Assembly: GCA_031549365.1 (NCBI GenBank)
Contig: JAVBPX010000001.1
Coordinates: 130,417-194,416, forward strand
DNA length: 64,000 nt
From: Alphaproteobacteria bacterium
GTDB lineage: Bacteria; Pseudomonadota; Alphaproteobacteria; Rs-D84
Direction: 5' to 3'
Shown here in pieces: positions 6,671-28,353 of this stretch. The position numbers and the translations under genes were made by a program. Under the pieces are notes generated by a model, which saw only the letters and a program-made list of their open reading frames with translations, ran no database searches and was not told where the DNA came from. Each line of letters starts with the position of its first letter. The first letter of the stretch is position 1.

Positions 6671-8686
6671 TTATTGACCAAACTGCTTATTTTGCTGACT
6701 GGATTGGGTGGTCTTTTTGTTCAATTCATCTTGGATCGATGATAATTTCATAGACATATTTGCAATACATGTATTGGCCTGGTTTGCATCTTTTATTTCA
6801 CTCTCTGAACATCCACTGACGGCACCAACACCAGTTACCCTGTTTGTTGAATAACTGTTAATTGATGACGCTAATTTTGCCAATTGTTTACGCGCCTTGT
6901 CCGACACAGTTTTACCAGAAATCAAACTCTTTGATTGCGACAATTGGTTGTTGAAACAATACATTCTGTCTGTATCAGTTGATTTGATTAAACAATCTTC
7001 GGATGAAACCGATCCCGATGCACCGGATGCGGACGCCGTTAAATCTTCGCCGGATTCAACCCTGGCAATTGCTTTTTGTAACTGCATTTGGAAACGCATG
7101 GTGGTTGATTCCAAATAATTATATTGGCGCTGCATTTCACGTGTTAATAATGTAACCTTGGACGCGATCAAACGATTTAATTCGGCCTTGGACGCTTCGT
7201 CCGTCACAAACTTCGTATCCAAATCTGCGGAATTATAAACTGCGGTTGAACATAATGCATAATACGGATTAACAGAACCTTTGATCCAACCTTTGGTTGG
7301 ATCGAGATCAGATTCCAAAATCCATTGAATTCCCGCTGTTGATATCTTTGCCAAATCCTTGTCCAATTCGATCTGTGTTGATTGACATTTATTCTTCGCC
7401 TTTTCTATGTCTGTTTCATTTCCAGCCTTGGCTGTGACGGTTCCATCAACTGCTAAAACTTTGCGTAATTTTGAAATCGACACACCCTGATCATTATCCA
7501 TAATACCTTCGAAAAAGCCGGAATTCATTGCCGTATCCGATACACATTTAACAACCGTTTTACCAGTTTTATCGATGCTGGACATAAATTTATCTTCTAC
7601 TTCTTGGTTATCTGTGAACAAACGCAACAACTGATCGGGCTTACCATCTTCTGTTTGATACAATCCCCAAACTGAACATGAATTGGTCAACATACGATAA
7701 ATATCATTAACATCAACACCCAATGCCTGGGCTGAAATCAATGCTTTGTAAACTTCGCGGCGCGCATTATCATACGGATCAAAAAATGCTTCGGCCTTTT
7801 GCTTGAAGGCAGCCACGCGTTTTGGCCCGGTACAATTGTCCCCGGTTGCGTTACAACCTGCGTATGTAAATGCATCCTGCATTGCTTTACGCACAGTTGC
7901 CAATGATGCATTAATATTATCCAATTTTGTTAACAATTCGCCGGACGGCGTTGCACGCGCCAATAAATCAGATTGCGATACGCTGGTTTGTTGTTGGGCG
8001 GCTTGAGCCGCCAATACTTCTTGGACCTGTGATGCGGCTTGTTGTTGAGCCATCTGAACTTGCTGATTCATTTGTTCCATTTGTTGCTGCATCATGGCCA
8101 TTTGCTGATTTGTTTGGGCGGATATTGCTGCGGCTTCGGCCTGTTGTGCTTTGCCTGCGGAATCGGCAGCCAATGCGGCGGCAACCGCACTTGAAATTGT
8201 TGGAAATTGTTTACAGCCAAACGCTATACGACCGGATAACGATGACATGCAACCATCGGCAATGCCTGTTGCAACCCCGGAATCCCCACAACCACCGGAT
8301 TTACATTTTGGGGACGCACAACGCAAAACCATTCCATAACAATTATTATAATTTACGCCGTCCGCTTCCAAACAGCCCCGAACCATATCGGTGCAACGTT
8401 GGGACCCAGCCTTGATAATACCGTTTGCAAATGAATTCATATCCAATGTTGCTGCACATTGATCAAAATATTGATCGCATTGGGATGATGCCGTACGTCC
8501 ACCGGATGTTCCCGATGTCCACATTGCATTGTTTGCCCCGCCAAAATTGCTGGACGCTGATGTTAAATTTCCACCGCCACCAAAAATCGCAGGCGCTGGT
8601 CCCGTTACCGGGTTCGCAGCATACAACAAAACCGGGCATAATAACATCCCACAAAAAACTGCCAATAAACCGGTTTTTTTAACCAT
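6671..8686 (-). CDS. Large secreted Cys-rich, Gly/Ser/Gln-rich hypothetical protein
   Basis: 671 aa. Signal peptide 'MVKKTGLLAVFCGMLLCPVLLYAANPV'. Gly/Ser-rich tract near the N-terminus. More than 25 Cys. Gln/Ala-rich coiled-coil-like tract 'MAMMQQQMEQMNQQVQMAQQQAASQVQEVLAAQAAQQQ'. I recognise no known catalytic motif. Confidence 0.6.
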   Translation of the reverse strand: MVKKTGLLAVFCGMLLCPVLLYAANPVTGPAPAIFGGGGNLTSASSNFGGANNAMWTSGTSGGRTASSQCDQYFDQCAATLDMNSFANGIIKAGSQRCTDMVRGCLEADGVNYNNCYGMVLRCASPKCKSGGCGDSGVATGIADGCMSSLSGRIAFGCKQFPTISSAVAAALAADSAGKAQQAEAAAISAQTNQQMAMMQQQMEQMNQQVQMAQQQAASQVQEVLAAQAAQQQTSVSQSDLLARATPSGELLTKLDNINASLATVRKAMQDAFTYAGCNATGDNCTGPKRVAAFKQKAEAFFDPYDNARREVYKALISAQALGVDVNDIYRMLTNSCSVWGLYQTEDGKPDQLLRLFTDNQEVEDKFMSSIDKTGKTVVKCVSDTAMNSGFFEGIMDNDQGVSISKLRKVLAVDGTVTAKAGNETDIEKAKNKCQSTQIELDKDLAKISTAGIQWILESDLDPTKGWIKGSVNPYYALCSTAVYNSADLDTKFVTDEASKAELNRLIASKVTLLTREMQRQYNYLESTTMRFQMQLQKAIARVESGEDLTASASGASGSVSSEDCLIKSTDTDRMYCFNNQLSQSKSLISGKTVSDKARKQLAKLASSINSYSTNRVTGVGAVSGCSESEIKDANQANTCIANMSMKLSSIQDELNKKTTQSSQQNKQFGQ

Positions 8687-17365: not shown

Positions 17366-17457
17366 GGAGAGGTGGCAGAGCCCGGTTGAATGCGCTCGAC
17401 TCGAAATCGAGTATACTGGCGACAGTATCGGGGGTTCGAATCCCCCCCTCTCCGCCA
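17366..17457 (+). tRNA. tRNA-Ser (anticodon CGA)
   Basis: Cloverleaf with acceptor GGAGAGG/CCTCTCC, long variable arm, anticodon stem ctcga/tcgag, loop 'ctCGAaa', T-loop GGTTCGAATCC. Discriminator G and CCA are encoded. Confidence 0.9.
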
Positions 17458-17512
17458 GACAAGATATTGATTTTACTACAATTTTTTACAAAATCGATAA
17501 CCCTTGAATTAT

Positions 17513-17535
17513 CCCCGGAATTCGGGGATTTTTTT
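17513..17535 (+). terminator. Rho-independent terminator downstream of tRNA-Ser
   Basis: 'ccccggaattcgggg' hairpin followed by a T7 run. Confidence 0.6.
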
Positions 17536-17672
17536 GATGCGATTTTAAGGTTATTGCAATGGTATGTGATTTAATATGTGAAAATACGGCGATATTTTGA
17601 TGTTTACATACAATGCCCGTTTTTGGCAGTGCACTGTTCATTGGTGCGAGGAAATTTTAAGGGAGTTTATTA

Positions 17673-17701
17673 TTGACTTTTTTGATGATTTGTGGTATAA
17701 T
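17673..17701 (+). promoter_or_regulatory. Consensus sigma70 promoter: -35 TTGACT, 17-bp spacer, extended -10 TGgTATAAT
   Basis: 'TTGACT tttttgatgatttgtgg TATAAT' at 17673-17701. Both hexamers match consensus perfectly with optimal spacing and a TG extension. Confidence 0.55.
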
Positions 17702-17714
17702 GCAGAGTATATTA

Positions 17715-17776
17715 GGACGGATTTTATCCGTCTTTTTTAATTTTAGTCCCGCTATTTTTGGCGGGGCTTTTTTTTA
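17715..17776 (+). terminator. Two tandem intrinsic-terminator hairpins in the leader (possible sRNA or attenuator)
   Basis: Hairpin 1 is 'gacgg attttat ccgtc' followed by T6. Hairpin 2 is 'gtcccgc tatttttg gcggggc' followed by T9. Both lie between the consensus promoter and the SD 'aagggag' of the ORF at 17795. Confidence 0.5.
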
Positions 17777-17794
17777 TATTTTTAAGGGAGTAAT

Positions 17795-18574
17795 ATGAAA
17801 AATAATTTTTTTAACGAACAATCTTTAAATTCTGATATTAAAACTCAGATTATCTTAGCTACATTTAAACTTTGGCTTCAAGACAATAAAAAGGAACAAA
17901 ATCTATCTTATATTGATCTATTTTCAGGGCCTGGCATATATGATGATGGAACATTATCTACACCGATATGTATTTTACAGGAAATTTGCAATAATAAGAG
18001 AATGGCACAGAGATTCAATGTGATCTTAAATGATTATAATGCAGAATTTATTGCAAAATTGCGTCGTATGATTTTGAATGTGAAAAATGCTAGGTTTATA
18101 AAAACTTTGGTTACTTCGATTGGTAATGCTGAAAGTTTTCAAAAGACCGTATCTAATAATGAACATATCTTCATGTTAATTGATCCTTGGGGATGGAAGG
18201 GTATAAATAGAAATTATATTAATAATATGTTATTAAATAAGGACTGTGATATTGCGGTGATGTTTAATTTTAATCAGTTTAATCGGTTTATGAATTTTGA
18301 TATCGCAGATGAATTGTTTAATGATTTGTTTGATAAAAAAACTTTGCACGAAATACGTAAATTTTGTAGCACAAATCCAAAATCGGAAAGAGAACAATTC
18401 GTGATAGATAAATTTGTGAAAATGGTTTGTAAAAATTGTGAAAATTGTAATTACACGCCATTTAAATTTAAGATGGAAAAATCGACGCGTACAAGCCATT
18501 ATATTATTTTTATAATTCGTGATAAAGATAGATTTCAAGCAACGAAAACTTTGTTAAATCAATACTTGGCTTGA
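17795..18574 (+). CDS. Hypothetical protein, candidate three-Cys-motif partner protein (TcmP-like) with a methyltransferase-like 'DLFSGPG' motif
   Basis: 259 aa. Good SD 'aagggag' 7 nt upstream. 'YIDLFSGPGIY' resembles SAM-MTase motif I and 'IDPWGWKG' is a possible motif-IV-like element. Directly upstream of a Gp37/Gp68 (DUF5131) gene. Confidence 0.5.
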   Translation: MKNNFFNEQSLNSDIKTQIILATFKLWLQDNKKEQNLSYIDLFSGPGIYDDGTLSTPICILQEICNNKRMAQRFNVILNDYNAEFIAKLRRMILNVKNARFIKTLVTSIGNAESFQKTVSNNEHIFMLIDPWGWKGINRNYINNMLLNKDCDIAVMFNFNQFNRFMNFDIADELFNDLFDKKTLHEIRKFCSTNPKSEREQFVIDKFVKMVCKNCENCNYTPFKFKMEKSTRTSHYIIFIIRDKDRFQATKTLLNQYLA

Positions 18575-18605
18575 AAAATAATATCGTTTCTGGCATAATG
18601 TGAAT

Positions 18606-19340
18606 ATGGCAGAAAAATCTAAACTTGAATGGACGGATGCAACGTGGAACCCAGTTGTTGGATGTACAAAGTACAGCGATGGGTGTATAAATTGTTATGC
18701 AAAACCAATTGCAGAACGTTTGTGTAGACAAGGAGTTTTTGGATACGAAAATGGTTTTAAAATGACATTGCGTCCAGAGCGTTTGGAAATTCCATTGCAT
18801 TGGAAAAAACCAAGATTAATATTTGTAGACTCCATGTGCGATTTATTTCACGATGATGTGCCATTAGAATATATTCAGAAAGTTTTTGCAATAATGAAGC
18901 GTGCAGATTGGCATGTTTATACCATATTAACAAAACGATCAAAGCGTTTGCGTGAATTGGCGTCAAACCTTGAATGGATGCCGCATGTTGTAATGGGTGT
19001 AACGATTGAATCCGATAAATATCGTGATAGGCTGGATGATTTGAAGGCTGTGCCTGCATATATGCGATATTTATCATTGGAGCCATTGTTGGGACCAATT
19101 AACCGATTGGATTTGGATGGAATTGATTGGGTTATTGCTGGTGGAGAATCCGGACCAAATGCACGGCAACTGGATACAAATTGGGTCAGAGAAATTCGCG
19201 ATTGGACATTGGAACAAAAAGCTGCGTTTTGGTTTAAACAGTATAGCGAGTATGGGGGACAGCATAAAGACCCTATTTTAGATGGGGAAAAATATAAGCA
19301 ATTTCCAGATTTTAAAACCGGAAAACCGAGTCTGTTTTAA
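18606..19340 (+). CDS. Phage Gp37/Gp68-family protein (DUF5131, three-Cys-motif protein)
   Basis: N-terminal 'KLEWTDATWNPVVGCTKYSDGCINCYA' matches the hallmark family start, a Cx6CxxC three-Cys motif right after 'WNP..GC'. The ATG at 18606 is preferred over the GTG at 18600. Confidence 0.6.
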   Translation: MAEKSKLEWTDATWNPVVGCTKYSDGCINCYAKPIAERLCRQGVFGYENGFKMTLRPERLEIPLHWKKPRLIFVDSMCDLFHDDVPLEYIQKVFAIMKRADWHVYTILTKRSKRLRELASNLEWMPHVVMGVTIESDKYRDRLDDLKAVPAYMRYLSLEPLLGPINRLDLDGIDWVIAGGESGPNARQLDTNWVREIRDWTLEQKAAFWFKQYSEYGGQHKDPILDGEKYKQFPDFKTGKPSLF

Positions 19341-19859
19341 TGGCAATGATTTATACAATCGGTTTTAGTGGAAAAACAGCGGACATTTTTACGGATGTTC
19401 TGGATGCTGTTGGTGTCAAAAAATTGATTGATATTCGTTTATGGCGGGCGTCACGATTTGTTCCATGGGCATCGGGTGCAAATTTGCAGAAACTTTTGGG
19501 TGACAAATATTGTTATATGCCGGAATTGACACCAACAAAATGAAGAAATTATTAAAAAGATAAATTATCGTCTGGGTACAAATGCGGATAAAATAAAACT
19601 CATTGAAAAAAACTATAATCGTCCGAATATTGAAGAATATTTGCAAATGTTTTCAAAAAACATGGATGGAGTAGATGAGACCAGAATTGCCCACTTTTAT
19701 TTGAAATATTGCGATTTCAAACATTCCAATGTACTGACGTGTTTAGAAGGACAAATACTTGATTTTCAGGTTGAACGCGTTATTACAGTAATGGTTATGC
19801 TTGTTACATATTTGAGTATGGCAAAATTAGAGCCCTATGTACATCCTGTCGGTATTTAA
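19340..19859 (+). pseudogene. DUF488 (YeaO-like) gene disrupted by a frameshift near 19525-19545
   Basis: ORF 19340-19543 encodes the DUF488 N-terminus ('MIYTIGFSGKT...LIDIRLWRASR...PELTPTK*'). The continuation is in another frame from about 19530 to 19859 ('EEIIKKINYRLG...LQMFSKNMDG...'). Confidence 0.5.
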
Positions 19860-19971: not shown

Positions 19972-21564
19972 ATGTCGGATAACAATGCCATTCATTGGGC
20001 GGATTTTATTGCAGAGCGAATAATTCGTGAAAAAGGCGATAAAGATTTATATACTTTGGCCAGCGGAATTACCCCGTCTGGGACAATTCATATTGGAAAA
20101 TTTCGCGAGATTATAACCACCGAATTGGTGTCCCGGGCGTTGGTTCGCATGGGGAAAAAGGTACGTTTTATTTATTCTTGGGATGATTATGATACTTTTC
20201 GCAAAGTGCCGGGCGATATGCCACAGCAAGAGATGTTAAAAGAATTATTGTATCAGCCGATTGTCGATATTCCAGATGTTTACGGAACAGAAAGTTCTTA
20301 TGCTCGGCATAACGAAGTGTCGTTGGAACGTATTGCTCCGGTATTGGGCATAACAAATATTGAATTTATTTATCAAAGTCGGATGTATCGTAGTGGCGAA
20401 TATAATGATTTGATTATAAAGGTTATGGATTCGCGAGATAAAATTCGTGATATTTTACAGACATCTAAAAGCCAGGGGATGGATGAAGAGTTTTATCCTA
20501 TTGCAACTTATTGCAGCAATTGCAATCGTGACCGAATTGTTTTTTCAAATTATAATACATCAGATAAAACAGTTGATTATAAGTGTAAGTTATGCAACCA
20601 CACGGAAAAGTTAAATTTACGCGATTCAAGGCGGCTGAAATTGCCTTGGCGAATTGATTGGCCAATGCGTTGGGCATTTGAAAATGTTGATTTTGAACCA
20701 GGTGGGACAGATCATTCTTCGGCTGGGGGCAGTTTTGATACCAGCAAAGTAATCGTTAGTGAGATTTTTGGAGGGGCGTCTCCGGTTTATGCAAAATATG
20801 CATTTGTATTGCCAAAGGGTGAAAGCAAAAAGATGTCTTCGTCAATTGGTAACGGGTTTTCTGTGGAAAGCGTTTTGCAGGTTTATGAACCAGAAATGAT
20901 ACGTTGGTTTTTTGCTTCGTATAAACCAGATGCGCAGTTCAGTATGGCTTTTGACATTGATGTTTTGAAGAATTACGAAGCATTTGACCGAATGGAACGC
21001 GTGGTTTATGGATTGGAAGATGTGAATGATGACAGGCGTGCAGTGCAGCGGCGTATTTATGAAATGTCTCAGATAAATTTTGATGGAAAGATTCCGGAAC
21101 AGATGCCTTTTCAGCCGAGTTTTAGGCACCTGTGTAATCAGTTGCAAATAAACGAATTTGATATCGAAAAAACCAGAGCATATTACGCCCACCAAATCAA
21201 AAATGACATCGATGAACAACGGTATCAAGAAAGGTCCAAATGCGCAGTATTTTGGATACAAAATTGTGCTTCGGATGATTTCAAACTTATATTGAATTCC
21301 GAAAAACGCAATGACATGACATTGTCGACAGATGAAAAAAAGTTCGTGAATGACTTGCACAAAATGTTGGAGATTGATTGGGACAATTTAGATGACGAAC
21401 GCGTCTTACAAAGTAAGGTCGGTGAATTAATTAAGGCCAACGGATTGGAAGTACTAAATGCGTATAAACTGTTATATCAGTTACTGGTCAATCGGGACCA
21501 AGGACCAAAGCTGGCCGGATTTATTTTGGGTATTGGCAAGGATAAGATTCTGAATTTGTTGTAA
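19972..21564 (+). CDS. lysK: Lysyl-tRNA synthetase, class I
   Basis: 530 aa. HIGH-type motif 'PSGTIHIGKFRE' and KMSKS-type motif 'KMSSSIGNG'. Architecture is typical of class I LysRS as found in alphaproteobacteria and archaea. Confidence 0.85.
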   Translation: MSDNNAIHWADFIAERIIREKGDKDLYTLASGITPSGTIHIGKFREIITTELVSRALVRMGKKVRFIYSWDDYDTFRKVPGDMPQQEMLKELLYQPIVDIPDVYGTESSYARHNEVSLERIAPVLGITNIEFIYQSRMYRSGEYNDLIIKVMDSRDKIRDILQTSKSQGMDEEFYPIATYCSNCNRDRIVFSNYNTSDKTVDYKCKLCNHTEKLNLRDSRRLKLPWRIDWPMRWAFENVDFEPGGTDHSSAGGSFDTSKVIVSEIFGGASPVYAKYAFVLPKGESKKMSSSIGNGFSVESVLQVYEPEMIRWFFASYKPDAQFSMAFDIDVLKNYEAFDRMERVVYGLEDVNDDRRAVQRRIYEMSQINFDGKIPEQMPFQPSFRHLCNQLQINEFDIEKTRAYYAHQIKNDIDEQRYQERSKCAVFWIQNCASDDFKLILNSEKRNDMTLSTDEKKFVNDLHKMLEIDWDNLDDERVLQSKVGELIKANGLEVLNAYKLLYQLLVNRDQGPKLAGFILGIGKDKILNLL

Positions 21565-21568
21565 TTCA

Positions 21569-22333
21569 TTACCTTTCTTGTATGTGCTTTCCCATAATGC
21601 ACTGGCGAGCGATGATTTTTTTGATGTTACTGCCGACAAGTTGCGATGTTAGAGGGCAATGATAGCTTTTTTTGAAATTTTCAGTGCATTGTTGTAAAGT
21701 TTCTGTAAAATTTGGTTTATAAAATTTTCCAATTTCTATACCCACAGGGGTGTTTTCAAGATTTCCCTTTGCTATTTCGTTATCAAAATTTTGTTTTGTA
21801 GTCGCAATTATATGTTTATTATCAGTGGTATGCAAGTGTGGTTCAGCCCTCTCCCATTGCGGTTGTGTAGATACAAATTTATCGGCCTCTTGCTTGTATG
21901 TTGAGTGTAATAGTGGACTATCTTTTAGTATTATTTTAGGTAAGTGCAACACCCATAAAATAATTCGAGCATATTGAAATTGCGATAATATGCAATCAGT
22001 TAATACGCATGAAGAACTCATAATTGACGGTAGAGAATCTTTAATGTTATTTGCAATGTATATGAGATCTGAAAGGCATTCTTTGTCTAGGCAAAATCCA
22101 AGGTGGTCAAAATCCTTTTGAAGGTCGTAATGCAGTTTCTTCATGTATTCAAGAAATTTTTTTTCTTGTTCGTGGTTGGATTTTTTTAGTAATATAAAAG
22201 TGTCAACATCTGAATTTGTTTTATCTTCACCTCGAGCAGTTGAGCCACATATAAATGAAAACTCTAGATTGTCTCCGAATATCTCTCGGGTATCTAAGTC
22301 CAATTGTTTTATCTGTTTTTTTGTTATTTTCAT
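21569..22333 (-). CDS. Pol-beta-superfamily nucleotidyltransferase domain protein (ANT/MNT-like), function unknown
   Basis: 254 aa. N-terminal NTase signature 'FICGSTARGEDKTNSDVDTFILL' (G[GS]x9-13Dx[DE]). The extreme C-terminus has an Rx6H element ('ARQCIMGKH') reminiscent of HEPN. Codon usage differs from core genes. Confidence 0.6.
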   Translation of the reverse strand: MKITKKQIKQLDLDTREIFGDNLEFSFICGSTARGEDKTNSDVDTFILLKKSNHEQEKKFLEYMKKLHYDLQKDFDHLGFCLDKECLSDLIYIANNIKDSLPSIMSSSCVLTDCILSQFQYARIILWVLHLPKIILKDSPLLHSTYKQEADKFVSTQPQWERAEPHLHTTDNKHIIATTKQNFDNEIAKGNLENTPVGIEIGKFYKPNFTETLQQCTENFKKSYHCPLTSQLVGSNIKKIIARQCIMGKHIQER

Positions 22334-22355
22334 TATTATTTACCAGTTGCTGTTT

Positions 22356-23813
22356 TTATAAGTATCTTACGATTTCTCTCTGAGGTAGAATTGGTTGTGG
22401 AGTAAATATGCCTTTGTAATAGATTCCAGATGCATGCTTTCCTATACCGCCATATGGTTTGTATCCATGCTCGAAATTGTGTAGATGGTCATTCACAAGT
22501 ATAGAGTCCGGCATATGGATTTTTTCATCATAAAGTATGGCTATTGTTTCTTCTTTTAATTTTCCATAAACTGTCAAAAACATAGCTGATTCTTTATATT
22601 TTGTATTTTTGAAATAGTTTATAAGTTCATTTTCTGAATCATAAGGTTGTATAAAGAATATTGGACAGAACAATTCTTCGTAATTAGCTCCTTCAGAGAG
22701 ATCCTTTACTATTACCGTAGGATATATCATATTTTTTGAAGCGTCTATAAGACCTCCATAATAAATATTCTTCCGATTGTTATAAATTAGTTTTGCAGCA
22801 TTTAATGCGTATCCATCTTTTGTATTAGGCATTATTATCGTGGATTTTTCAGGATTTGAATTACAGTTTTCATGAATTTCTTTTAATTTATTTATTAAAA
22901 TTTCTTGAAAATCTGTTAAACAATCTCTTTTCACAAGTAATGCATTTGGGGCGGCACAGTCTTGTCCTTGGTTGTATGTTCCAAGCTCGATACATGCTTC
23001 GACGGCTTCTTTGATATTTGACCGAAGATTTATTATAACCGGGTTTTGTCCAGCACCACCAAAGAAACAATATAACTCTTTGTTATACGATCTTTTTACT
23101 TTCTTCATGTTTTCATATGTACCTGTAAATATAAATGCCTTTATTTCATTTCGTGTAATATTGAGAAAATCCTCTCTTCCTCCATAGAATATTTCTATAT
23201 TTGGCATACTTGATAAATTTAACAATTTATCTAGCTCTTTAAAAACGTCTTGAGAATCATTTGGATATCTAACATATACTTTCTTACAAATATACGATGG
23301 AACAAGAGCAAAACAAACAAAGGAATACAGCAATTGGTTTAAAGGCATAAATGACGCGATTGGTGCTTTCTCTTTTAAAAAGTATTCCTTATTTATGGTA
23401 AGATTTGTAAGAAGGTCTATTGATCTATCAATTTCATCACATATTGTATTATAGGTGGCATATGATGAAAGAGCTTTATAGATATCTTCTCTGCGCTGAT
23501 TTAATTGAAACGAAAAATTGAGCGCGTCTGTTAAAATTTTATCAAAGTCTAGATTATTTTCCACGTCTTTTTTAGAAATATTTGTTCTTTGTCCAAACCA
23601 AGAGCCAATTTCCTTTTTACTGAGTTTCTCTGTTTTTACTATAAGCCCTAAGTCATTTTTTTCATACTCCAGGCTGAGATTGTTAATATTGTGGAGTATA
23701 TTATCTTTAGCTTTTGTATCCATCTCATCAAATTTGAGGATAAAAGTCAGCCCATTTTTATCTTGTAAAATGGTTCCAATAGGCTGTTTCTTTTTCCTTA
23801 CTATGAAGTCCAT
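22356..23813 (-). CDS. Divergent aldehyde dehydrogenase superfamily protein (catalytic Cys kept, general-base Glu replaced)
   Basis: 485 aa. ALDH motifs present: 'FTGTYENMKKV' (NAD-binding F-T-G-S-T-like), 'NQGQDCAAPNALLVKRD' (Cys motif F-x-N-x-GQ-x-C), 'EELFCPI' (EEIFGPV-like). The 'ELGGKSP' position reads 'FFGGAGQNP', so the Glu is absent. Confidence 0.6.
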   Translation of the reverse strand: MDFIVRKKKQPIGTILQDKNGLTFILKFDEMDTKAKDNILHNINNLSLEYEKNDLGLIVKTEKLSKKEIGSWFGQRTNISKKDVENNLDFDKILTDALNFSFQLNQRREDIYKALSSYATYNTICDEIDRSIDLLTNLTINKEYFLKEKAPIASFMPLNQLLYSFVCFALVPSYICKKVYVRYPNDSQDVFKELDKLLNLSSMPNIEIFYGGREDFLNITRNEIKAFIFTGTYENMKKVKRSYNKELYCFFGGAGQNPVIINLRSNIKEAVEACIELGTYNQGQDCAAPNALLVKRDCLTDFQEILINKLKEIHENCNSNPEKSTIIMPNTKDGYALNAAKLIYNNRKNIYYGGLIDASKNMIYPTVIVKDLSEGANYEELFCPIFFIQPYDSENELINYFKNTKYKESAMFLTVYGKLKEETIAILYDEKIHMPDSILVNDHLHNFEHGYKPYGGIGKHASGIYYKGIFTPQPILPQREIVRYL

Positions 23814-23844
23814 ATTTTCTCCTTGATTAATGTGGACCTTAAGT

Positions 23845-25344
23845 TTATCTCAACTTTATTTTTTTTAACATGGGAAATGTTAAAACATCTCTGATATTAG
23901 ATGAGTTTGTTAACATCATGGCGAGGCGATCTGCACCTATTCCCATGCCTCCTGTAGGGGGCATACCGTATTCTAAAGCTGTAAGAAAGGCTTCATCCAT
24001 TTGCATTGCTTCAGGATCATCTGAAAGAGATGCTTGTTCTTCGAATTTTTTTCTTTGATCTATTGGATTTGATAATTCTGAGTAAGCTTCACCAAATTCA
24101 ATGCCGCCAACATAGAGCATAAATCTTTCAGAAAGACGTGGGTTTTGTCGATGTATTTTTGTCAGCGGAGATATATCATATGGAACATCCATTACGAAAG
24201 TTGGTTGAATAAGAGTTTTTTCGACTTTTTCTTCAAATATAGTTTCTACTACTTTACCCCAAGATTCAGTTCCCTTGAGTCGAATTTTGTGTTTTTGGGC
24301 AATGCTATGAATTTCCCTATCGCTCATGTTTATAAGATCTTCGTTCAGCGCTTCTGATGCTGCGTCTACCATTGGTAATCTTTTAAATGGTTTTTCAAGG
24401 TCTATTAAGGCATCTTTCCAAGTAATGTGGAGAGAGCTGTTGACAGCCATAGATGAATCTCGCAGCAATCTTTCTGCGAGAATCATCATGTCAAAATAGT
24501 CTTTATAAGAGCCATATATATCTAGCATTGTGAATTCTGGACTGTGGCGATTATCAATACCTTCATTGCGGAAATTTTTACCAATTTCAAACACTCGAGG
24601 AATGCCTCCAACAATGAGCCGCTTTAGTTCAAGTTCAGATGCTATCCTGAGATAAAAATCGTCTTTAAGAGAATTATAATGTGTAGTAAATGGAGCAGCA
24701 TTTGCACCGGCTTTTACTGGGTGAAGTATAGGTGTTTCTACCTCTATATATCCCTCATCGTGCATTACTTCGCGTATAGCATACATTGCTTTCGCCCTAT
24801 TGAGAACAACATCCCGAGAGTTTTTGTTTACTATAAGATCTACGGATTTATTGCGGTATCTTTCTTCGGAGTCTGTTAGACCGTGGTATTTTTCAGGAAG
24901 AATATTCAATGATTTTGACAGCATTGTTACTTCCAGAGGAGTAACAGAAACTGCTCCTCGCAAAGTTTTTTTAATTCCTCCCAAAACACCAATTATATCA
25001 CCAATGTCAAGATTTTTAAGCATGTTATTAAATTGTGTATCTGCTTTTGGATTTTCATTGCAAATTTGAATTTTTCCGGATTCATCTTCAACATCGATGA
25101 ACATTCCGGAATTTCGGATTGCCATAATTCTTCCTGCAATTTTTACAATGTCTTTTGTATCCGCTGTCTTTTCACCAGGTTGAAGGTGGCCAAATTCAGC
25201 TATTATATTACTGGCAAGATGCGTTGGTTTGTATATGTGTGGATATGCGTTTATTCCTTGAGATTCGATGTCTTTAAGTTTTTGAATCCTTATTTCTTTT
25301 AAAGAATTTATTGGTGTCTTATTATCTTTTTTTTGATTTTGCAT
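23845..25344 (-). CDS. lysS: Lysyl-tRNA synthetase, class II (full length, with N-terminal anticodon-binding OB fold)
   Basis: 499 aa. Class II motif 1 'RVFEIGKNFRNEG', motif 2 'HSPEFTMLDIY', motif 3 'GGMGIGADRLAMMLT'. N-terminal OB-fold region 'KIAGRIMAIRNSGMFIDVEDESGKIQICNE'. AGA/AGG/GGA/ACA-rich codon usage unlike neighbouring core genes. Confidence 0.85.
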   Translation of the reverse strand: MQNQKKDNKTPINSLKEIRIQKLKDIESQGINAYPHIYKPTHLASNIIAEFGHLQPGEKTADTKDIVKIAGRIMAIRNSGMFIDVEDESGKIQICNENPKADTQFNNMLKNLDIGDIIGVLGGIKKTLRGAVSVTPLEVTMLSKSLNILPEKYHGLTDSEERYRNKSVDLIVNKNSRDVVLNRAKAMYAIREVMHDEGYIEVETPILHPVKAGANAAPFTTHYNSLKDDFYLRIASELELKRLIVGGIPRVFEIGKNFRNEGIDNRHSPEFTMLDIYGSYKDYFDMMILAERLLRDSSMAVNSSLHITWKDALIDLEKPFKRLPMVDAASEALNEDLINMSDREIHSIAQKHKIRLKGTESWGKVVETIFEEKVEKTLIQPTFVMDVPYDISPLTKIHRQNPRLSERFMLYVGGIEFGEAYSELSNPIDQRKKFEEQASLSDDPEAMQMDEAFLTALEYGMPPTGGMGIGADRLAMMLTNSSNIRDVLTFPMLKKIKLR

Positions 25345-25366
25345 AGATATACCTTTTTATACTTTT

Positions 25367-25439
25367 TGGGGGGCGGTCCGGATTTGAACCGTACCTCTGA
25401 GGGAAAACTCAGCGTTCTGCCTAATTATACTACCCGCCC
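25367..25439 (-). tRNA. Aberrant tRNA-like element (degenerate cloverleaf, 6-nt anticodon loop TTTTCC). Either a pseudo-tRNA or a non-canonical tRNA.
   Basis: Minus-strand sequence GGGCGGGTAGTATAATTAGGCAGAACGCTGAGTTTTCCCTCAGAGGTACGGTTCAAATCCGGACCGCCCCCCA. Canonical T-loop GGTTCAAATCC. Acceptor 6/7 pairs. 3' C-CCA encoded. Anticodon stem CTGAG/CTCAG with only 6 loop nt. D-stem and T-stem each carry a mismatch. Confidence 0.4.
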
Positions 25440-25522
25440 TATAATTGTGATGAAGTGATCCCATCAACTTATCATTGTTTATGTCAAAAGCAATTTAAAT
25501 GTCAATAATTATTTTTTGTTAT

Positions 25523-26644
25523 TTATTTGTTATTTAATATAATTAATGGCACTTGCATTTCGGATGCTGTCCCGCCTGCATGTTCAGATGCTGGTGAGCC
25601 AAACTCTTCCCAAGCTTTTTGATTTTGATGCAATGATTTGTTTCCTATTCCAATTGCGACATAGTCCCCGATTGATTCATCTTCCAGCACTCTATTCTTG
25701 GCAGAATACCAGTGAAGGTAGTTTGTTTTAAAAGTTTCCTTATTGATCAGCAAAAAATCTTTCTCCGAAAATATTTCATAAAATATTCTTTCAAAGCTAT
25801 TTTTAGCCTCTGGTTTTACGAAAAATTGTGTACAACGCGCCTCACATGAAATCGGCATTATCAGAGTGTCAGCAATACCCGTAAAATCTTCGATAAATAA
25901 GGGCAAAGTATCAATATGACCGTGATCAGCAGTTATGATGAATAATGTATCTGGGCAATTATTTTGCAAATTTATTATTGCATCTCGTATATTGCAGATA
26001 CAATTTCTGGCTTCGCCAGACAAAATTCCGTGATCATGGTTAGTGCTATCTGGCTCCGGCCAATACGCGTATATGTAATTTTTATTGGCATTTTTTGTAT
26101 TTGCTATTTTTTCAATAGTTGAACACCATTTCTCAACTGTATTATGCTCTGGTGTAATAAACTGAGGCATAACCTCAAAAGCGCTCCATTCGGAAATATC
26201 ATTGATTTGGTCAACAAGTAATGCTGGCATTTTTTCCAACGGAGGCTTCGTAAGATGAGATGATTCACCACTATAAAAGTCACAATTAGTAAAATTTTCG
26301 ACAATCTCTCCAGATTCTTTATAATATTGCGACCATCCCAATAACCCATGTGATACAGGCAACAGCCCCGTGCGCAAAGTTGTTGTGGCGGCAACCGTAG
26401 TAGAAGGAACTATTGTATCAATAGTATCATATTTGTTTTTATAAAAATAGTCTGTCACAGAATCGCTTAATACATCCAGCTGTTCTGTCCCCATTCCGTC
26501 TAGGACTATAAGAGCTATGTTTTTGTACACTTCCGATGACCACGAATTTATGATCATTGGATGCGACTCATAATTTGGACATAGTCCAACAATTTTTTGT
26601 ATTGCAGATGTTATTGATGTTATATCGTATTTCATGAGGTACAT
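25523..26644 (-). CDS. Alkaline-phosphatase-superfamily protein (type I phosphodiesterase / nucleotide pyrophosphatase-like)
   Basis: 'IALIVLDGMGTEQLDV' metal-site region and 'FIITADHGHID' match the AlkP/NPP family. Start placed at the first ATG ('MYLMKYD'). The ORF track extends to a TTG at 26671. Confidence 0.7.
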   Translation of the reverse strand: MYLMKYDITSITSAIQKIVGLCPNYESHPMIINSWSSEVYKNIALIVLDGMGTEQLDVLSDSVTDYFYKNKYDTIDTIVPSTTVAATTTLRTGLLPVSHGLLGWSQYYKESGEIVENFTNCDFYSGESSHLTKPPLEKMPALLVDQINDISEWSAFEVMPQFITPEHNTVEKWCSTIEKIANTKNANKNYIYAYWPEPDSTNHDHGILSGEARNCICNIRDAIINLQNNCPDTLFIITADHGHIDTLPLFIEDFTGIADTLIMPISCEARCTQFFVKPEAKNSFERIFYEIFSEKDFLLINKETFKTNYLHWYSAKNRVLEDESIGDYVAIGIGNKSLHQNQKAWEEFGSPASEHAGGTASEMQVPLIILNNK

Positions 26645-27298
26645 ATTAGCAATGACATATCTTGAAGTCAACCGCGTATTTGGTTGAAAGTTGAGCGGAA
26701 TTCTAGTTTCGTGGGAATATTGGTTGTTTTTATGTTTTGGTAATGAATTTTCATTGTTATTTAAAATAAATTCCCTGTTAGGGTTTTAGGGAATTTGGGG
26801 TGATGTGGGTAGTGGATGCCGCGGTGTGGTTGGGGTTGTGAATTTGGGACCAATTGGTAAAATGCGATTTTAGGGGCAAAACCACAAAATTTCCCTGTAA
26901 ATTCCCTGATGTTGTTTGTGTGATTAATTTTGCTGTGTGGAATCGCGTAACCTTGCGATGCACACATCAATTCCGTGCTAATAACGCACGTCATTGTGTG
27001 TTTATATGCTCGGTTTCCCTGATAATCGGTTGGATGTTGGTGGGGTGTTGGATTATTCGGGGAAATAATCGGGATAAGTGATTTATGAGGTGTTTATCAT
27101 GTTTAGTATGCTCTACACCAATAACATTTACACCTCCGCCAGAATTGGCCGTTTTATTTTTATCCGCGCGCGGCCCCGAAAACTCGCGGCTTTACTTTTT
27201 ATTTTCACAGTGGTATGGTGATTTATATCAAAAATCTGCAGATTTGGTTCTCCTTACATACGATTACCATTTTTGCACTGTGAACTTTGGGGGCTGTT

Positions 27299-27790
27299 AT
27301 GACCGCAACAATACATTTAGTACATGGTTTTATTGGGTTTGGAAAAACTACGATTGCGAAAAGATTGGCGCATGAATTGCCTACGGTTATTCTGTCTGAT
27401 GATGAATTTATGGTAAAATTATATGGCAATAATCCTCCTGCTGATTTATTTCGTGATTATTATAATCGTATAGATAATTTAATTTGGAATTTAGCAAAAG
27501 AGATTGTAAAAACTGGCGCAGATGTAATTATTGATTCCGGTTTTTGGAGTAAAGAAAGTCGTGCAACTGCATATAATCGCGCAAAAAATATTACAAAAAA
27601 TGTAGTGTTTCACAACATTCAATGCAATATGGATATTGCCCGGCAACGAGCATTGGAACGGACAAAAATGAATTCCGGCGAATTGGCTGTGGATGAAAAT
27701 ACGTTTGATTTATTTAAAATTCAATTTCAACCAATTGATTCTGATGAAAATTATATAGTAATTAACCACGATAATAATATTAAAAAATGA
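27299..27790 (+). CDS. Small P-loop NTPase / predicted kinase (AAA_33 or zeta-toxin-like fold)
   Basis: 164 aa. Walker A 'HGFIGFGKTTIAKRL' near the N-terminus. Walker B-like 'DVIIDSGF'. Stop overlaps the tag start (ATGA). Confidence 0.6.
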   Translation: MTATIHLVHGFIGFGKTTIAKRLAHELPTVILSDDEFMVKLYGNNPPADLFRDYYNRIDNLIWNLAKEIVKTGADVIIDSGFWSKESRATAYNRAKNITKNVVFHNIQCNMDIARQRALERTKMNSGELAVDENTFDLFKIQFQPIDSDENYIVINHDNNIKK

Positions 27791-28353
27791 AACAAGTAAA
27801 ACGCTGTGAATGGTGCGGGACAGACCCACTATATGTTAAATACCACGATACCGAATGGGGACGTTTGGTAGATGACGACCAAACAATGTTTGAATTTTTA
27901 ACGTTGGAATCAGCCCAGGCCGGCTTATCATGGATAACCGTATTGCGCAAACGGGAAAATTATAGACAGGCTTTTGCAAATTTTGATGTGAATGCAGTTG
28001 CTAAATTTACTGACAAAGATGTCGAAAAATTAATGCAAAATAATGGCATCATTCGAAATCGCTTAAAAATCCGTGCAGCAATTACAAATGCACAAAAATT
28101 TATTGAAATACAAAGGGAATTCAAAAGCTTTTGTAATTATATTCGCGGCTTTTTACCAAACGAAAAACCCATTGTAAATAAACCGAAATCATTATCCGAC
28201 ATCCCTGCCCGCTCAGAACTCTCCGACGCGATTTCAACGGACATGAAAAAACGTGGTTTTAAATTTTTCGGATCAACCATATGTTATGCACATTTGCAAG
28301 CAACCGGATACATAAATGACCATTTGGCTCATTGCTCGTTCCGCAACAATTAA
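27787..28353 (+). CDS. tag: DNA-3-methyladenine glycosylase I
   Basis: 188 aa. 'CEWCGTDPLYVKYHDTEWGRLVDDDQTMFEFLTLESAQAGLSW' is the Tag signature, including the zinc-site Cys/His residues. Confidence 0.85.
   Translation: MKQVKRCEWCGTDPLYVKYHDTEWGRLVDDDQTMFEFLTLESAQAGLSWITVLRKRENYRQAFANFDVNAVAKFTDKDVEKLMQNNGIIRNRLKIRAAITNAQKFIEIQREFKSFCNYIRGFLPNEKPIVNKPKSLSDIPARSELSDAISTDMKKRGFKFFGSTICYAHLQATGYINDHLAHCSFRNN

Follow-up and report, generated by a model that had tools for sequence, protein, structure and literature searches.

A horizontally acquired lysyl-tRNA synthetase cassette in an alphaproteobacterium and the widespread module by which activated lysine may be reduced to an aldehyde

In the C5 pathway, glutamyl-tRNA reductase (GluTR, HemA) attacks the ester of its aminoacyl-tRNA with an active-site Cys and reduces the resulting thioester with NADPH to an alpha-amino aldehyde; to our knowledge, it is the sole enzyme family known to reduce an aminoacyl-tRNA. 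Staphylococci possess a tRNA-Gly for the Fem transferases which is charged by the normal synthetase and whose sequence features bar ribosomal decoding. ATRed of Xenorhabdus indica, a minimal nonribosomal peptide synthetase (NRPS) of the A-T-R type, is reported to release amino aldehydes that condense to pyrazines and similar compounds (PMC7586950). In the Bacillus cereus group, a class I and a class II lysyl-tRNA synthetase (LysRS) are present in one genome along with tRNAOther, a pseudo-tRNA linked to the LysRS system; the accessory enzyme is the class I LysRS, which is T-box regulated and expressed in stationary phase, and tRNAOther is part of a regulatory RNA at the border of an island (PMC2916919, PMC3399842). 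Here, we describe a cassette of four genes and a tRNA(Lys)-like element adjoining lysK, the class I LysRS gene of a Rickettsiales-like Alphaproteobacteria bacterium (lineage Rs-D84). The cassette lies in a window of 64,000 nucleotides with a G+C content of ~39%, which is the whole stretch analysed (contig JAVBPX010000001.1, positions 130,417 to 194,416, assembly GCA_031549365.1).

With about even confidence, we read the cassette as an operon drawn from a widespread module in which a LysRS of either class works with a thiol enzyme of the aldehyde dehydrogenase (ALDH) fold, often accompanied by a nucleotidyltransferase (NTase) of the Pol-beta type, and in which activated lysine would be reduced to an aldehyde. 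The ALDH-like protein, not the synthetase, defines this module. Judging from sequences and gene neighbourhoods, the module probably diverts activated lysine into a small aldehyde-type molecule and not into protein. The parts of the cassette, arranged as PDE-[tRNA-like-LysRS2-ALDH-like]-NTase (PDE, phosphodiesterase; LysRS2, class II LysRS), and the neighbouring lysK are listed below.

19972-21564, forward strand: lysK, native class I lysyl-tRNA synthetase, neighbour of the cassette and outside it
21569-22333, reverse strand: nucleotidyltransferase of the Pol-beta superfamily, 254 aa, last gene of the cassette
22356-23813, reverse strand: LuxC-like enzyme of the ALDH superfamily, 485 aa, defining component of the module
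23845-25344, reverse strand: complete class II lysyl-tRNA synthetase, 499 aa, foreign to the host
25368-25440, reverse strand: aberrant tRNA(Lys)-like element, located ~23 nt ahead of the class II LysRS start codon
25523-26671, reverse strand: phosphodiesterase of the alkaline-phosphatase superfamily, nucleotide-pyrophosphatase-like, 382 aa from a TTG start, first gene of the cassette

The stop codons of the NTase gene and lysK are 4 nt apart, and the foreign block abuts lysK. For the PDE, a 370-aa call exists for the same gene in contig L001. No terminator-like site was found between the PDE gene and the tRNA-like element, and promoter and terminator scans performed no better than with shuffled sequence. 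A first, sequence-only reading of this DNA had taken the ORF (open reading frame) 19972-21564 for a class I LysRS, and the profiles bear this out (PF01921, 382.7 bits; TIGR00467, 478 bits vs. a cut-off of 147.55). It had also placed an NTase and a divergent ALDH-superfamily gene downstream of the class II LysRS on the same strand, where profile searches agree with it, and a degenerate tRNA-like element upstream, which ARAGORN indeed reports as 'tRNA-???' and Rfam scores just below threshold. It had further seen a four-part combination that it did not know as a described system. We likewise found no published description of a LysRS/ALDH-like/NTase system or of an aminoacyl-tRNA reductase other than GluTR, although the literature coverage was incomplete and absence is not proof; the parts, however, are five, the PDE having been missed, and the survey of synteny described below shows that the combination is no one-off but one form taken by a widespread module that unites an ALDH-like protein and an NTase with a LysRS of class I or class II.

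The search of a protein collection returned 76 relatives of the ALDH-like protein with 22-43% identity (32-43% bar the weakest match). Many of them are Patescibacteria proteins of ~600 aa that carry the JGI name 'lysyl-tRNA synthetase class 1', and a Xenorhabdus protein unites the Pfam class I LysRS and Aldedh domains in one chain. The family alignment was scanned over species-representative genomes and metagenomes, yielding 160 further loci, and 164 loci in all were searched with the window proteins. A LysRS-derived element was fused or adjacent to the ALDH-like gene in 139 of the 152 loci that could be evaluated, the contig being too short to judge in 12 of the 164. This element was a fused C-terminal tail of the ALDH-like protein in 80 loci, a class I LysRS or LysRS-like gene within 2 kb in 51, a class II LysRS in seven, and both classes in one. 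When an alignment of 48 sequences of the tail was compared with that of class I LysRS, the tail proved to correspond to residues 413-530 of the window class I LysRS (hhalign probability 96.7%, E 3.6e-10), i.e., to the non-catalytic C-terminal part of the enzyme, which presumably holds the anticodon-recognition domains. In many cases, the class I LysRS lies immediately upstream and is fused to the ALDH-like protein (Photorhabdus, Xenorhabdus, Pseudomonas, Brenneria, Saccharothrix, Kibdelosporangium), and in the 962-aa fusion of Photorhabdus luminescens the HIGH-like and KISKS motifs are intact. Two further fusions join the ALDH-like protein to a class II LysRS, with the OB domain kept in both: the 936-aa protein of Aliiroseovarius conchicola (L081) contains a complete class II LysRS, while the 889-aa protein of L098 shows the OB domain and a partial match to the catalytic core. 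In locus L172, the closest ALDH-like homologue (P0002, 40% identity) directly follows a class II LysRS gene, as in the window.

LysRSs of class I and those of class II are unrelated in fold. Since two unrelated enzymes interchange in one module, it is their shared product and not the protein that should matter to the ALDH-like enzyme, and this product would be lysyl-adenylate or lysyl-tRNA. The sequence-only reading had proposed three functions. The two that centre on a tRNA, an orthogonal tRNA/LysRS pair and a tRNA-dependent transfer of amino acids, fit the comparative data best, whereas resistance to a LysRS inhibitor found no specific support; the gene fusions of LysRS with the ALDH-like protein speak for a biosynthetic partnership rather than for such resistance.

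The ALDH-like family is nearly universal in the candidate phyla radiation (CPR)/Patescibacteria and is also found in Photorhabdus, Xenorhabdus, Pseudomonas and actinomycetes. Genes for octopine-dehydrogenase-like proteins lie near the ALDH-like gene in L081 and L085, aminotransferases and a short-chain dehydrogenase/reductase (SDR) in L002, L086 and the contig of P0008, and an MFS exporter gene is present in 22 loci of proteobacteria and actinomycetes. In CPR loci, a 114-aa four-helix membrane protein resembling SMR/TMEM234 is encoded directly upstream in 47 cases, and a membrane histidine kinase downstream in 71 (e.g., L043 9657-10001, L063 11837-13327). Enzymes that handle carbonyls and amines, together with exporters of small, probably cationic molecules, would fit a lysine product at the aldehyde level. 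More distant ALDH-like relatives occur on megaplasmids of the Bacillus cereus group, in a cluster with an adenylate-forming enzyme of the ANL type. Such a relative, with 29% identity (L173 6998-15146), is accompanied by a thiamine-pyrophosphate-binding protein, an ANL adenylate-forming enzyme, a ketosynthase (KS)-like protein and an ABC transporter for cyclic-peptide export.

The Pfam Aldedh profile matches the ALDH-like protein of the window in residues 220-415 only (68 bits). An AlphaFold (AF2) model built from the family alignment (pLDDT 90.8) has the ALDH fold, and Foldseek aligns it with solved ALDHs at TM ~0.65 and 13-20% identity. The catalytic Cys (equivalent to Cys302; C286 in NQGQDC) and the oxyanion Asn (equivalent to Asn169; N159 in PxNQP) are invariant in the family alignment and align with the GQxC and PxNxP motifs of a solved ALDH. 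By contrast, the general-base Glu (Glu268 of ELGGKSP) is replaced, the motif being LNGAGHNP in the family and FGGAGQNP in the window protein; of the residues that mark a hydrolytic ALDH (PF00171), the protein thus has the Cys and the Asn and lacks the Glu. In ALDHs, the Glu of ELGGKSP activates water for hydrolysis of the thioester, and an ALDH that forms a Cys-thioester without hydrolysing it is expected to be an acyl reductase or an acyl-transferring enzyme. Because the Cys and the Asn are kept and the Glu is missing, general ALDH enzymology leads us to expect acyl-reductase or acyl-transfer chemistry here. The homologues match the LuxC profile PF05893 weakly (23-27 bits vs. a cut-off of 21), and the window protein does not match it. 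A glutamyl-tRNA reductase fold or sequence was rejected, as the ALDH fold is the only one to which the protein is assigned by Pfam, the AF2 model and Foldseek. A LysRS-derived origin of the N-terminal domain of ~90 residues in this subfamily was also discarded (hhalign probability 0.3%), and so was a phage origin of the gene, for which just two weak Staphylococcus phage matches were found.

Reduction of activated lysine, which is the reading we prefer, would proceed as follows. The LysRS of the cassette would activate lysine and load it onto the co-encoded, non-decoding tRNA(Lys)-like RNA or onto cellular tRNA(Lys), and the lysyl group would pass to the catalytic Cys of the ALDH-like enzyme as a thioester. 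With the water-activating Glu missing, the thioester would not be hydrolysed but reduced, at the expense of NAD(P)H, to 2,6-diaminohexanal (lysine aldehyde) or its cyclised form, so that the chemistry would be that of glutamyl-tRNA reductase on an unrelated fold. The cationic product would then be elaborated or exported. The NTase and the PDE would take part in this pathway as well, possibly by attaching a nucleotide to the product through O-nucleotidylylation and removing it again.

The same active site could belong to a non-redox lysyl transferase that passes lysine from Lys-tRNA via the Cys-thioester to an amine or hydroxyl acceptor, e.g., a target in the cell envelope or a small molecule. 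Cys and Asn without Glu are also what acyl transfer needs, the glycine motif for NAD binding is incomplete, and the near-universal presence in CPR bacteria beside membrane proteins could suit an envelope function. However, the residues equivalent to ALDH E399 and K192 (Arg here) are conserved on the cofactor side, the recurrent octopine-dehydrogenase-like, aminotransferase and SDR neighbours use carbonyl and amine chemistry, and no acceptor-specific partner recurs. We regard a transferase as very unlikely.

As to the RNA of the cassette, ARAGORN assigns the window element an anticodon (tt) within a 6-nt anticodon loop UUUUCC, and its score with Rfam RF00005 is 28.6 bits (E 0.017), below the gathering score of 29. 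It does not have the 7-nt loop with U33 and a purine at position 37 that marks a canonical tRNA. The D stem is weak and contains an A-A mismatch; a one-base conflict of register between the acceptor and T stems leaves either an A1-C72 mismatch or a T stem of 4 bp; the discriminator is C; and the loop contains a run of four U residues whose register is ambiguous. Our own tRNA(Lys) covariance model R1 gives it 51.4 bits, but the element had itself been used to seed that model. Folded by itself with RNAfold, the element gave no cloverleaf and no clear gain in stability over shuffles (z -1.6), a single-sequence fold being uninformative in this case.

Genes for tRNA(Lys) are enriched in the loci surveyed, over which ARAGORN reported 34 tRNAs, Lys being the commonest (8 of 34). 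Six tRNAs lie within 1 kb of an ALDH-like gene; four of these are tRNA(Lys), all upstream and on the same strand, and three of the four are abnormal. The anticodon loops of these three are UUCUUUA in L004, UUUUUUG in L087 and CUCUUUA in L092, each with U37, whereas the canonical tRNA(Lys) genes of L038, L104, L131 and L164 (the last within 1 kb) have CUUUUAA or CGUUUAA with A37. A fourth element was found in L172 with our own covariance model, 21 nt upstream of the class II LysRS and thus in a position equivalent to that of the window element; ARAGORN calls it 'Asn, att', its loop is UCAUUUG with C33 and A34, and its CCA is encoded. An aberrant tRNA(Lys)-like gene is found at the head of the operon, on the same strand, in the window, L172, L004, L087 and L092. 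Covariation over the five elements supports the cloverleaf, which is 91% paired with compensatory changes in 12 of 21 pairs; slid controls reach 56% at most. The covariance-model search over 73 sources revealed no hidden tRNA-like genes beyond the ARAGORN calls (L172 was fetched later).

The elements of L172, L004, L087 and L092 share the pattern N34-U35-U36-U37-R38, with A73 in L004, L087 and L092 and U73 in L172. The t6A modification, normal in tRNA(Lys), is impossible on a pyrimidine at position 37. LysRSs of both classes use U35 and U36 as identity determinants, and those of class II also use A73 (PMC9976931). With U35 and U36 kept and a pyrimidine at position 37, the four elements look chargeable yet unfit for decoding. 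The window element may work in some unusual manner, or may be in decay or non-functional.

Several observations were made beside these tRNA genes. In L087, 3 nt separate the end of the aberrant tRNA(Lys) (7129-7204) from the ATG start codon of the downstream ALDH-like gene, and the sole Shine-Dalgarno-like sequence (AGGAGG) is part of the 3' acceptor strand of the tRNA, so that folding or processing of the tRNA and translation of the enzyme should be coupled. Downstream of the row tRNA(Lys,U37)-ALDH-like-class II LysRS in L092 (9824-12114) are a SLOG/LOG-like protein and a phosphoribosyltransferase, and a 372-aa NTase-domain protein is encoded on the opposite strand; all of these are additional neighbours that handle nucleotides. 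L164 (4000-11565) has almost no ORFs of at least 90 aa under table 11, but tblastn revealed, one after another behind the canonical tRNA(Lys), genes for an ALDH-like protein, a LysRS resembling class I and a class II LysRS; this lineage probably has a reassigned stop codon.

The tRNA-like genes also bear on a reductase that is coupled to LysRS but independent of tRNA, whose Cys would take lysine from the enzyme-bound lysyl-adenylate in a relay like that of carboxylic acid reductases, the tRNA-like element being a decayed relic or a cis-acting leader that mimics tRNA(Lys) and thereby regulates the operon. This would suit the irregular, sub-threshold element of the window and the distant homologues located near an ANL adenylate-forming enzyme and not near an aminoacyl-tRNA synthetase (aaRS). 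The Shine-Dalgarno sequence within the acceptor strand in L087 suits a translational switch, and the class II LysRS of L172, located between tsf and folB, could be a housekeeping enzyme with a regulatory leader. On the other hand, 80 loci fuse the non-catalytic C-terminal domain of class I LysRS alone, which suits tRNA binding and not the hand-over of an adenylate; the OB anticodon-binding domain is kept in the fused class II enzymes; and what follows the aberrant tRNA in L087, L004 and L092 is the ALDH-like gene and not a synthetase gene. Taken together, these data make a tRNA-independent route unlikely.

In the cassette synthetase, a genuine class II LysRS, residues 67-141 match the OB anticodon-binding domain PF01336 and residues 159-493 the catalytic core PF00152. 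The protein scores 540.8 bits with TIGR00499 lysS_bact (cut-off 427.6) and 596 bits with NF001756 (cut-off 468), and aligns end to end with a solved bacterial LysRS (427 bits), motifs 2 and 3 being intact (FRNEGID..H.PEFT, GGMGIGADRL). The sequence-only reading had denied that it is EpmA/PoxA, and rightly so: the protein is of 499 aa with an OB domain, while EpmA has ~325 aa and none, and its TIGR00462 score of 209.6 bits is below the cut-off of 286.9. It lacks close relatives, with 59-62% identity to three proteins and ~50% to the others. In the loci of the closest relatives (L088 8001-13887; L090 8001-14475; L091 8001-11567), the LysRS gene is followed by genes for a radical SAM protein, a second class II aaRS-like protein and a Peptidase_S66 (MccF-family) protein; a methyltransferase gene was seen in one locus and a NUDIX gene after another such LysRS. 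These clusters may represent an EpmA/EpmB-like set or a different accessory LysRS system.

The NTase has the hG[GS]...DxD motif and the NTase fold of the Pol-beta superfamily, and its best structural matches are the aminoglycoside and lincosamide O-nucleotidyltransferases AAD(9), ANT(4') and LinB and the MNT antitoxins. PADLOC gave generic minimal-NTase matches for this protein and none for the other three, and a known anti-phage defence system was dismissed. The family is small, with 39 proteins at E<1e-10 in a search of 1.8 billion representatives, and five of its members are fused to an ALDH-like part that shares 28-35% identity with the window protein. Five Saccharibacteria loci (L037, L056, L100, L107, L166) repeat the order ALDH-like, LysRS, NTase with a class I LysRS, and L081 does so with the fused class II LysRS; L002 and L086 likewise have NTase-like genes after the ALDH-like gene, and in L085 an NTase fused to an octopine-dehydrogenase-like protein adjoins that gene. 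On Kitasatospora and Nocardia plasmids, NTase relatives are accompanied by two radical SAM genes, a plasmid-borne gltX and NUDIX genes, and the NTase family may be tied to accessory aaRS genes more generally. This conserved plasmid cluster (L176 5962-10577; L177 4514-10398) also includes an FAD monooxygenase and a GNAT or amidase gene. The PDE matches Pfam Phosphodiest (PF01663) with 48.3 bits (cut-off 23). In L174, a PDE homologue (33% identity, E 3e-51) is encoded directly upstream of the closest NTase homologue (34% identity), i.e., the two genes form an adjacent pair in at least one other contig. No PDE relatives were found on plasmids or, by sequence, among solved structures.

The class II LysRS could also be a copy for self-resistance or immunity, the cassette making, or guarding against, a mimic of lysyl-adenylate such as reduced lysine O-adenylylated by the NTase and hydrolysed by the PDE. 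Organisms that make aaRS inhibitors (mupirocin, agrocin 84, albomycin) are well known for extra aaRS copies, the NTase is closest to enzymes by which cationic antibiotics are O-adenylylated, the PDE and NTase are paired in L174, NUDIX and Peptidase_S66 (MccF family) genes lie near the closest relatives of LysRS2 and the NTase, and NTase relatives adjoin the plasmid-borne gltX. Yet the essential LysRS of the host is class I, and a resistant class II copy would give it no obvious protection; a catalytic partnership is suggested by the fusions of LysRS with the ALDH-like protein and by the exchange of one class for the other; the motifs of the class II LysRS show no unusual divergence; and two-electron reduction of the ALDH type gives an aldehyde, while adenylylation needs an alcohol. 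No known inhibitor pathway was recognised among the cassette neighbours. Self-resistance thus appears distinctly improbable. An extension of the reductase reading would retain part of this idea: the NTase would O-nucleotidylate the reduced product to an aminoalkyl-adenylate-like inhibitor of LysRS, and the PDE would reverse this step, an alcohol and not an aldehyde being required. Such an extension would fit the ANT-like fold of the NTase and the NUDIX and S66 genes near relatives.

The block 21569-26671 is an insertion, a horizontally acquired operon, as follows from its deviant codon usage and its absence next to lysK in relatives. In a leave-one-out codon model of the 47 ORFs of the window, the NTase, ALDH-like, class II LysRS and PDE genes are the four worst fits (z -2.2 to -3.5; class II LysRS -3.5, ALDH-like -2.6, PDE -2.2). 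AGA and AGG make up 33-71% of the Arg codons in the cassette genes (57% in the PDE gene) vs. ~10% in the other window genes pooled, and G+C at third codon positions (GC3) is 0.25-0.31 vs. ~0.36. By contrast, codon usage in the class I LysRS gene is typical of the window; the closest homologues of its product are 73-74% identical, and the named matches at 68-72% are proteins of Rickettsiales or Alphaproteobacteria bacterium metagenome-assembled genomes. The foreign codon usage noticed in the sequence-only reading was thereby upheld, but the block extends to 26671 and does not end at 25344, and the background is not GC-rich, the contrast being one of AGA/ATA/GGA vs. CGT/CGC in a genome of ~39% G+C. 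Horizontal acquisition, which it had also proposed, is borne out by the same deviant usage and by relatives with 73-74% identical class I LysRS that lack the block beside lysK. In the two contigs of relatives examined, lysK is followed by a PBP1A-type gene and the cassette is absent. The gap between the two genes holds a zeta-toxin pair in one relative and nothing in the other (L082 11579-12621; L084 9874-10211), and such variability implies that the cassette sits in an insertion hot spot.

A further possibility is that the cassette is an inactive or decaying passenger, or that the second LysRS is a stress-time alternative as in the Bacillus cereus group with its neighbours as mere hitch-hikers. 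In favour are the degenerate tRNA-like element, the variable spot with a zeta-toxin pair in relatives and a candidate defence pair 2 kb away, and the presence of both LysRS classes in B. cereus (PMC2916919). The four ORFs are, however, all intact, co-oriented and tightly spaced, the same gene set recurs across phyla and also as fusions, and an independent read-level assembly recovered an identical contig of 9.5 kb. Of the explanations considered, this one seems to us the least probable, with a very small chance of being right.

The surroundings of the block contain other features. A tRNA-Ser gene at 17366, 4 kb from the cassette, is associated with other cargo: tRNA-Ser(CGA) (17366-17457) is followed by genes for a TcmP-like protein (17795-18574) and a DUF5131 protein (18600-19340), a pair that matches the PADLOC candidate defence pair PDC-M30 A/B (52 and 306 bits), and by a short DUF488-like ORF (19340-19543). 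The stretch 17366-19543 looks like separate island cargo just upstream of lysK. Sub-threshold Rfam matches at 17695-17775, an A/T-rich spot after the tRNA-Ser gene (GcvB, 27.6 bits vs. 42; toxic sRNA; anti-hemB), are probably due to chance. On the other side, a G/T-rich non-coding stretch (26672-27286) separates the cassette from the next gene. In this stretch, 20 nt are directly repeated (26767-26786 and 26898-26917), and it bears no recognisable signature of a mobile element. The next gene, for an AAA_33 kinase-like protein (27287-27790), has the lowest GC3 of the window (0.217) with typical codon preferences and overlaps the start of a 3-methyladenine glycosylase gene (27787-28353).

What this work establishes is the identity of the genes, the foreign origin of the block, the conservation of the associations and fusions, the presence of aberrant tRNAs and the pattern of active-site residues. 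From these, we infer that tRNA rather than the adenylate is the acyl donor, that the reaction runs in the reductive direction, what its product is, and any role of the NTase and PDE. A number of points count against a lysine-reducing operon. Direction and product are read from active-site residues and neighbours only, and a simple reductase leaves the roles of the NTase and PDE unexplained. Conservation of the NAD(P)-binding motifs is only partial, the window protein lacking the second Gly of GxxxxG, and hhalign detected no relation of the N-terminal domain of ~90 residues to any tRNA-binding domain. In view of the distant homologues paired with ANL enzymes, the family may accept acyl-adenylates or thioesters and not tRNA esters. 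No LysRS-derived element was found in 13 of the 152 loci that could be evaluated. The window element is the most deviant of the five (6-nt loop, discriminator C, shifted stem register, sub-threshold Rfam score). As for mobility, no integrase was found in the 17-28 kb part of the window, and the block is flanked by no direct or inverted repeats and no att repeats.

In its boldest form, which we put forward tentatively and consider doubtful, the ALDH-like family would be a second, independently evolved aminoacyl-tRNA reductase, namely a lysyl-tRNA reductase, that uses dedicated non-decoding tRNA(Lys) carriers (with U37 or shortened loops) and recruits either class of LysRS or just the tRNA-binding domain of LysRS. 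In the window, the aldehyde-level product would be nucleotidylated by the NTase and this modification reversed by the PDE, giving a new lysine-derived nucleotide conjugate, possibly a mimic of lysyl-adenylate. There is a substantial chance that the module represents a new enzyme class. If so, a second family that reduces aminoacyl-tRNA, with another fold and another amino acid, would add to the known roles of charged tRNA beyond translation, and a function would be gained for an ALDH-like family of well over a hundred lineages, including natural-product genera and most CPR bacteria, whose metabolism is poorly understood. The tRNA(Lys)-like genes with non-decoding loops would then be natural tRNAs reserved as acyl carriers, and the class II LysRS in a class I organism would be explained as part of an imported small-molecule module and not as translational redundancy. 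That a single module accommodates LysRSs of class I or class II amounts to a clean natural experiment on whether the two classes are functionally equivalent. The tRNA deacylases encoded in gene clusters were considered and set aside as an unrelated system.

By analogy, the cassette would be assigned to a known kind of system, the diversion of an amino acid into small-molecule chemistry that depends on an aaRS and a tRNA, and the closest known system in function would be GluTR. The two share the proposed logic of Cys-thioester reduction, recognition of the substrate via a specific tRNA, and a physical or genetic link to the cognate synthetase. They differ in fold, which is that of ALDH here, and in the amino acid, lysine vs. 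glutamate; tRNA recognition is apparently borrowed from LysRS domains, an NTase and a PDE are added, and the reaction is a predicted one. In terms of the enzyme itself, the LuxC-type acyl reductases and CoA-acylating ALDHs come near, with the same ALDH fold, catalytic Cys and oxyanion Asn and with weak LuxC matches among the homologues. The hydrolytic Glu, absent here, is not known from the acylating and reductase branches of the ALDHs either. Unlike in these enzymes, however, where an acyl-CoA or acyl-ACP system serves, the acid would be activated here by an aminoacyl-tRNA synthetase. The cassette NTase resembles AAD(9), ANT(4'), LinB and the MNT antitoxins in its two-domain size of ~250 aa and its GS...DxD catalytic motif.

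With the dedicated non-proteinogenic tRNAs, the elements described here share the nature of isoacceptors with features that keep them out of decoding, their charging being predicted; the deviation lies in the anticodon loop (U37 or a 6-nt loop) and not in the pairs that contact EF-Tu, and the proposed consumer is a reductase and not a transferase. ATRed and the carboxylic acid reductases resemble the proposed route in ATP activation, a (thio)ester, and two-electron reductive release as an aldehyde, but the cassette has no ANL adenylation, carrier-protein or SDR-type R domains; a genuine aaRS would activate the amino acid, and tRNA is the proposed carrier. Finally, the Bacillus cereus group also combines both LysRS classes with an aberrant tRNA-like RNA that does not serve translation. 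No module of the kind found here is described for B. cereus in PMC2916919 and PMC3399842; in the alphaproteobacterium, the accessory enzyme is class II and foreign, and the tRNA-like gene stands at the head of an operon that also encodes an ALDH-like enzyme and an NTase.

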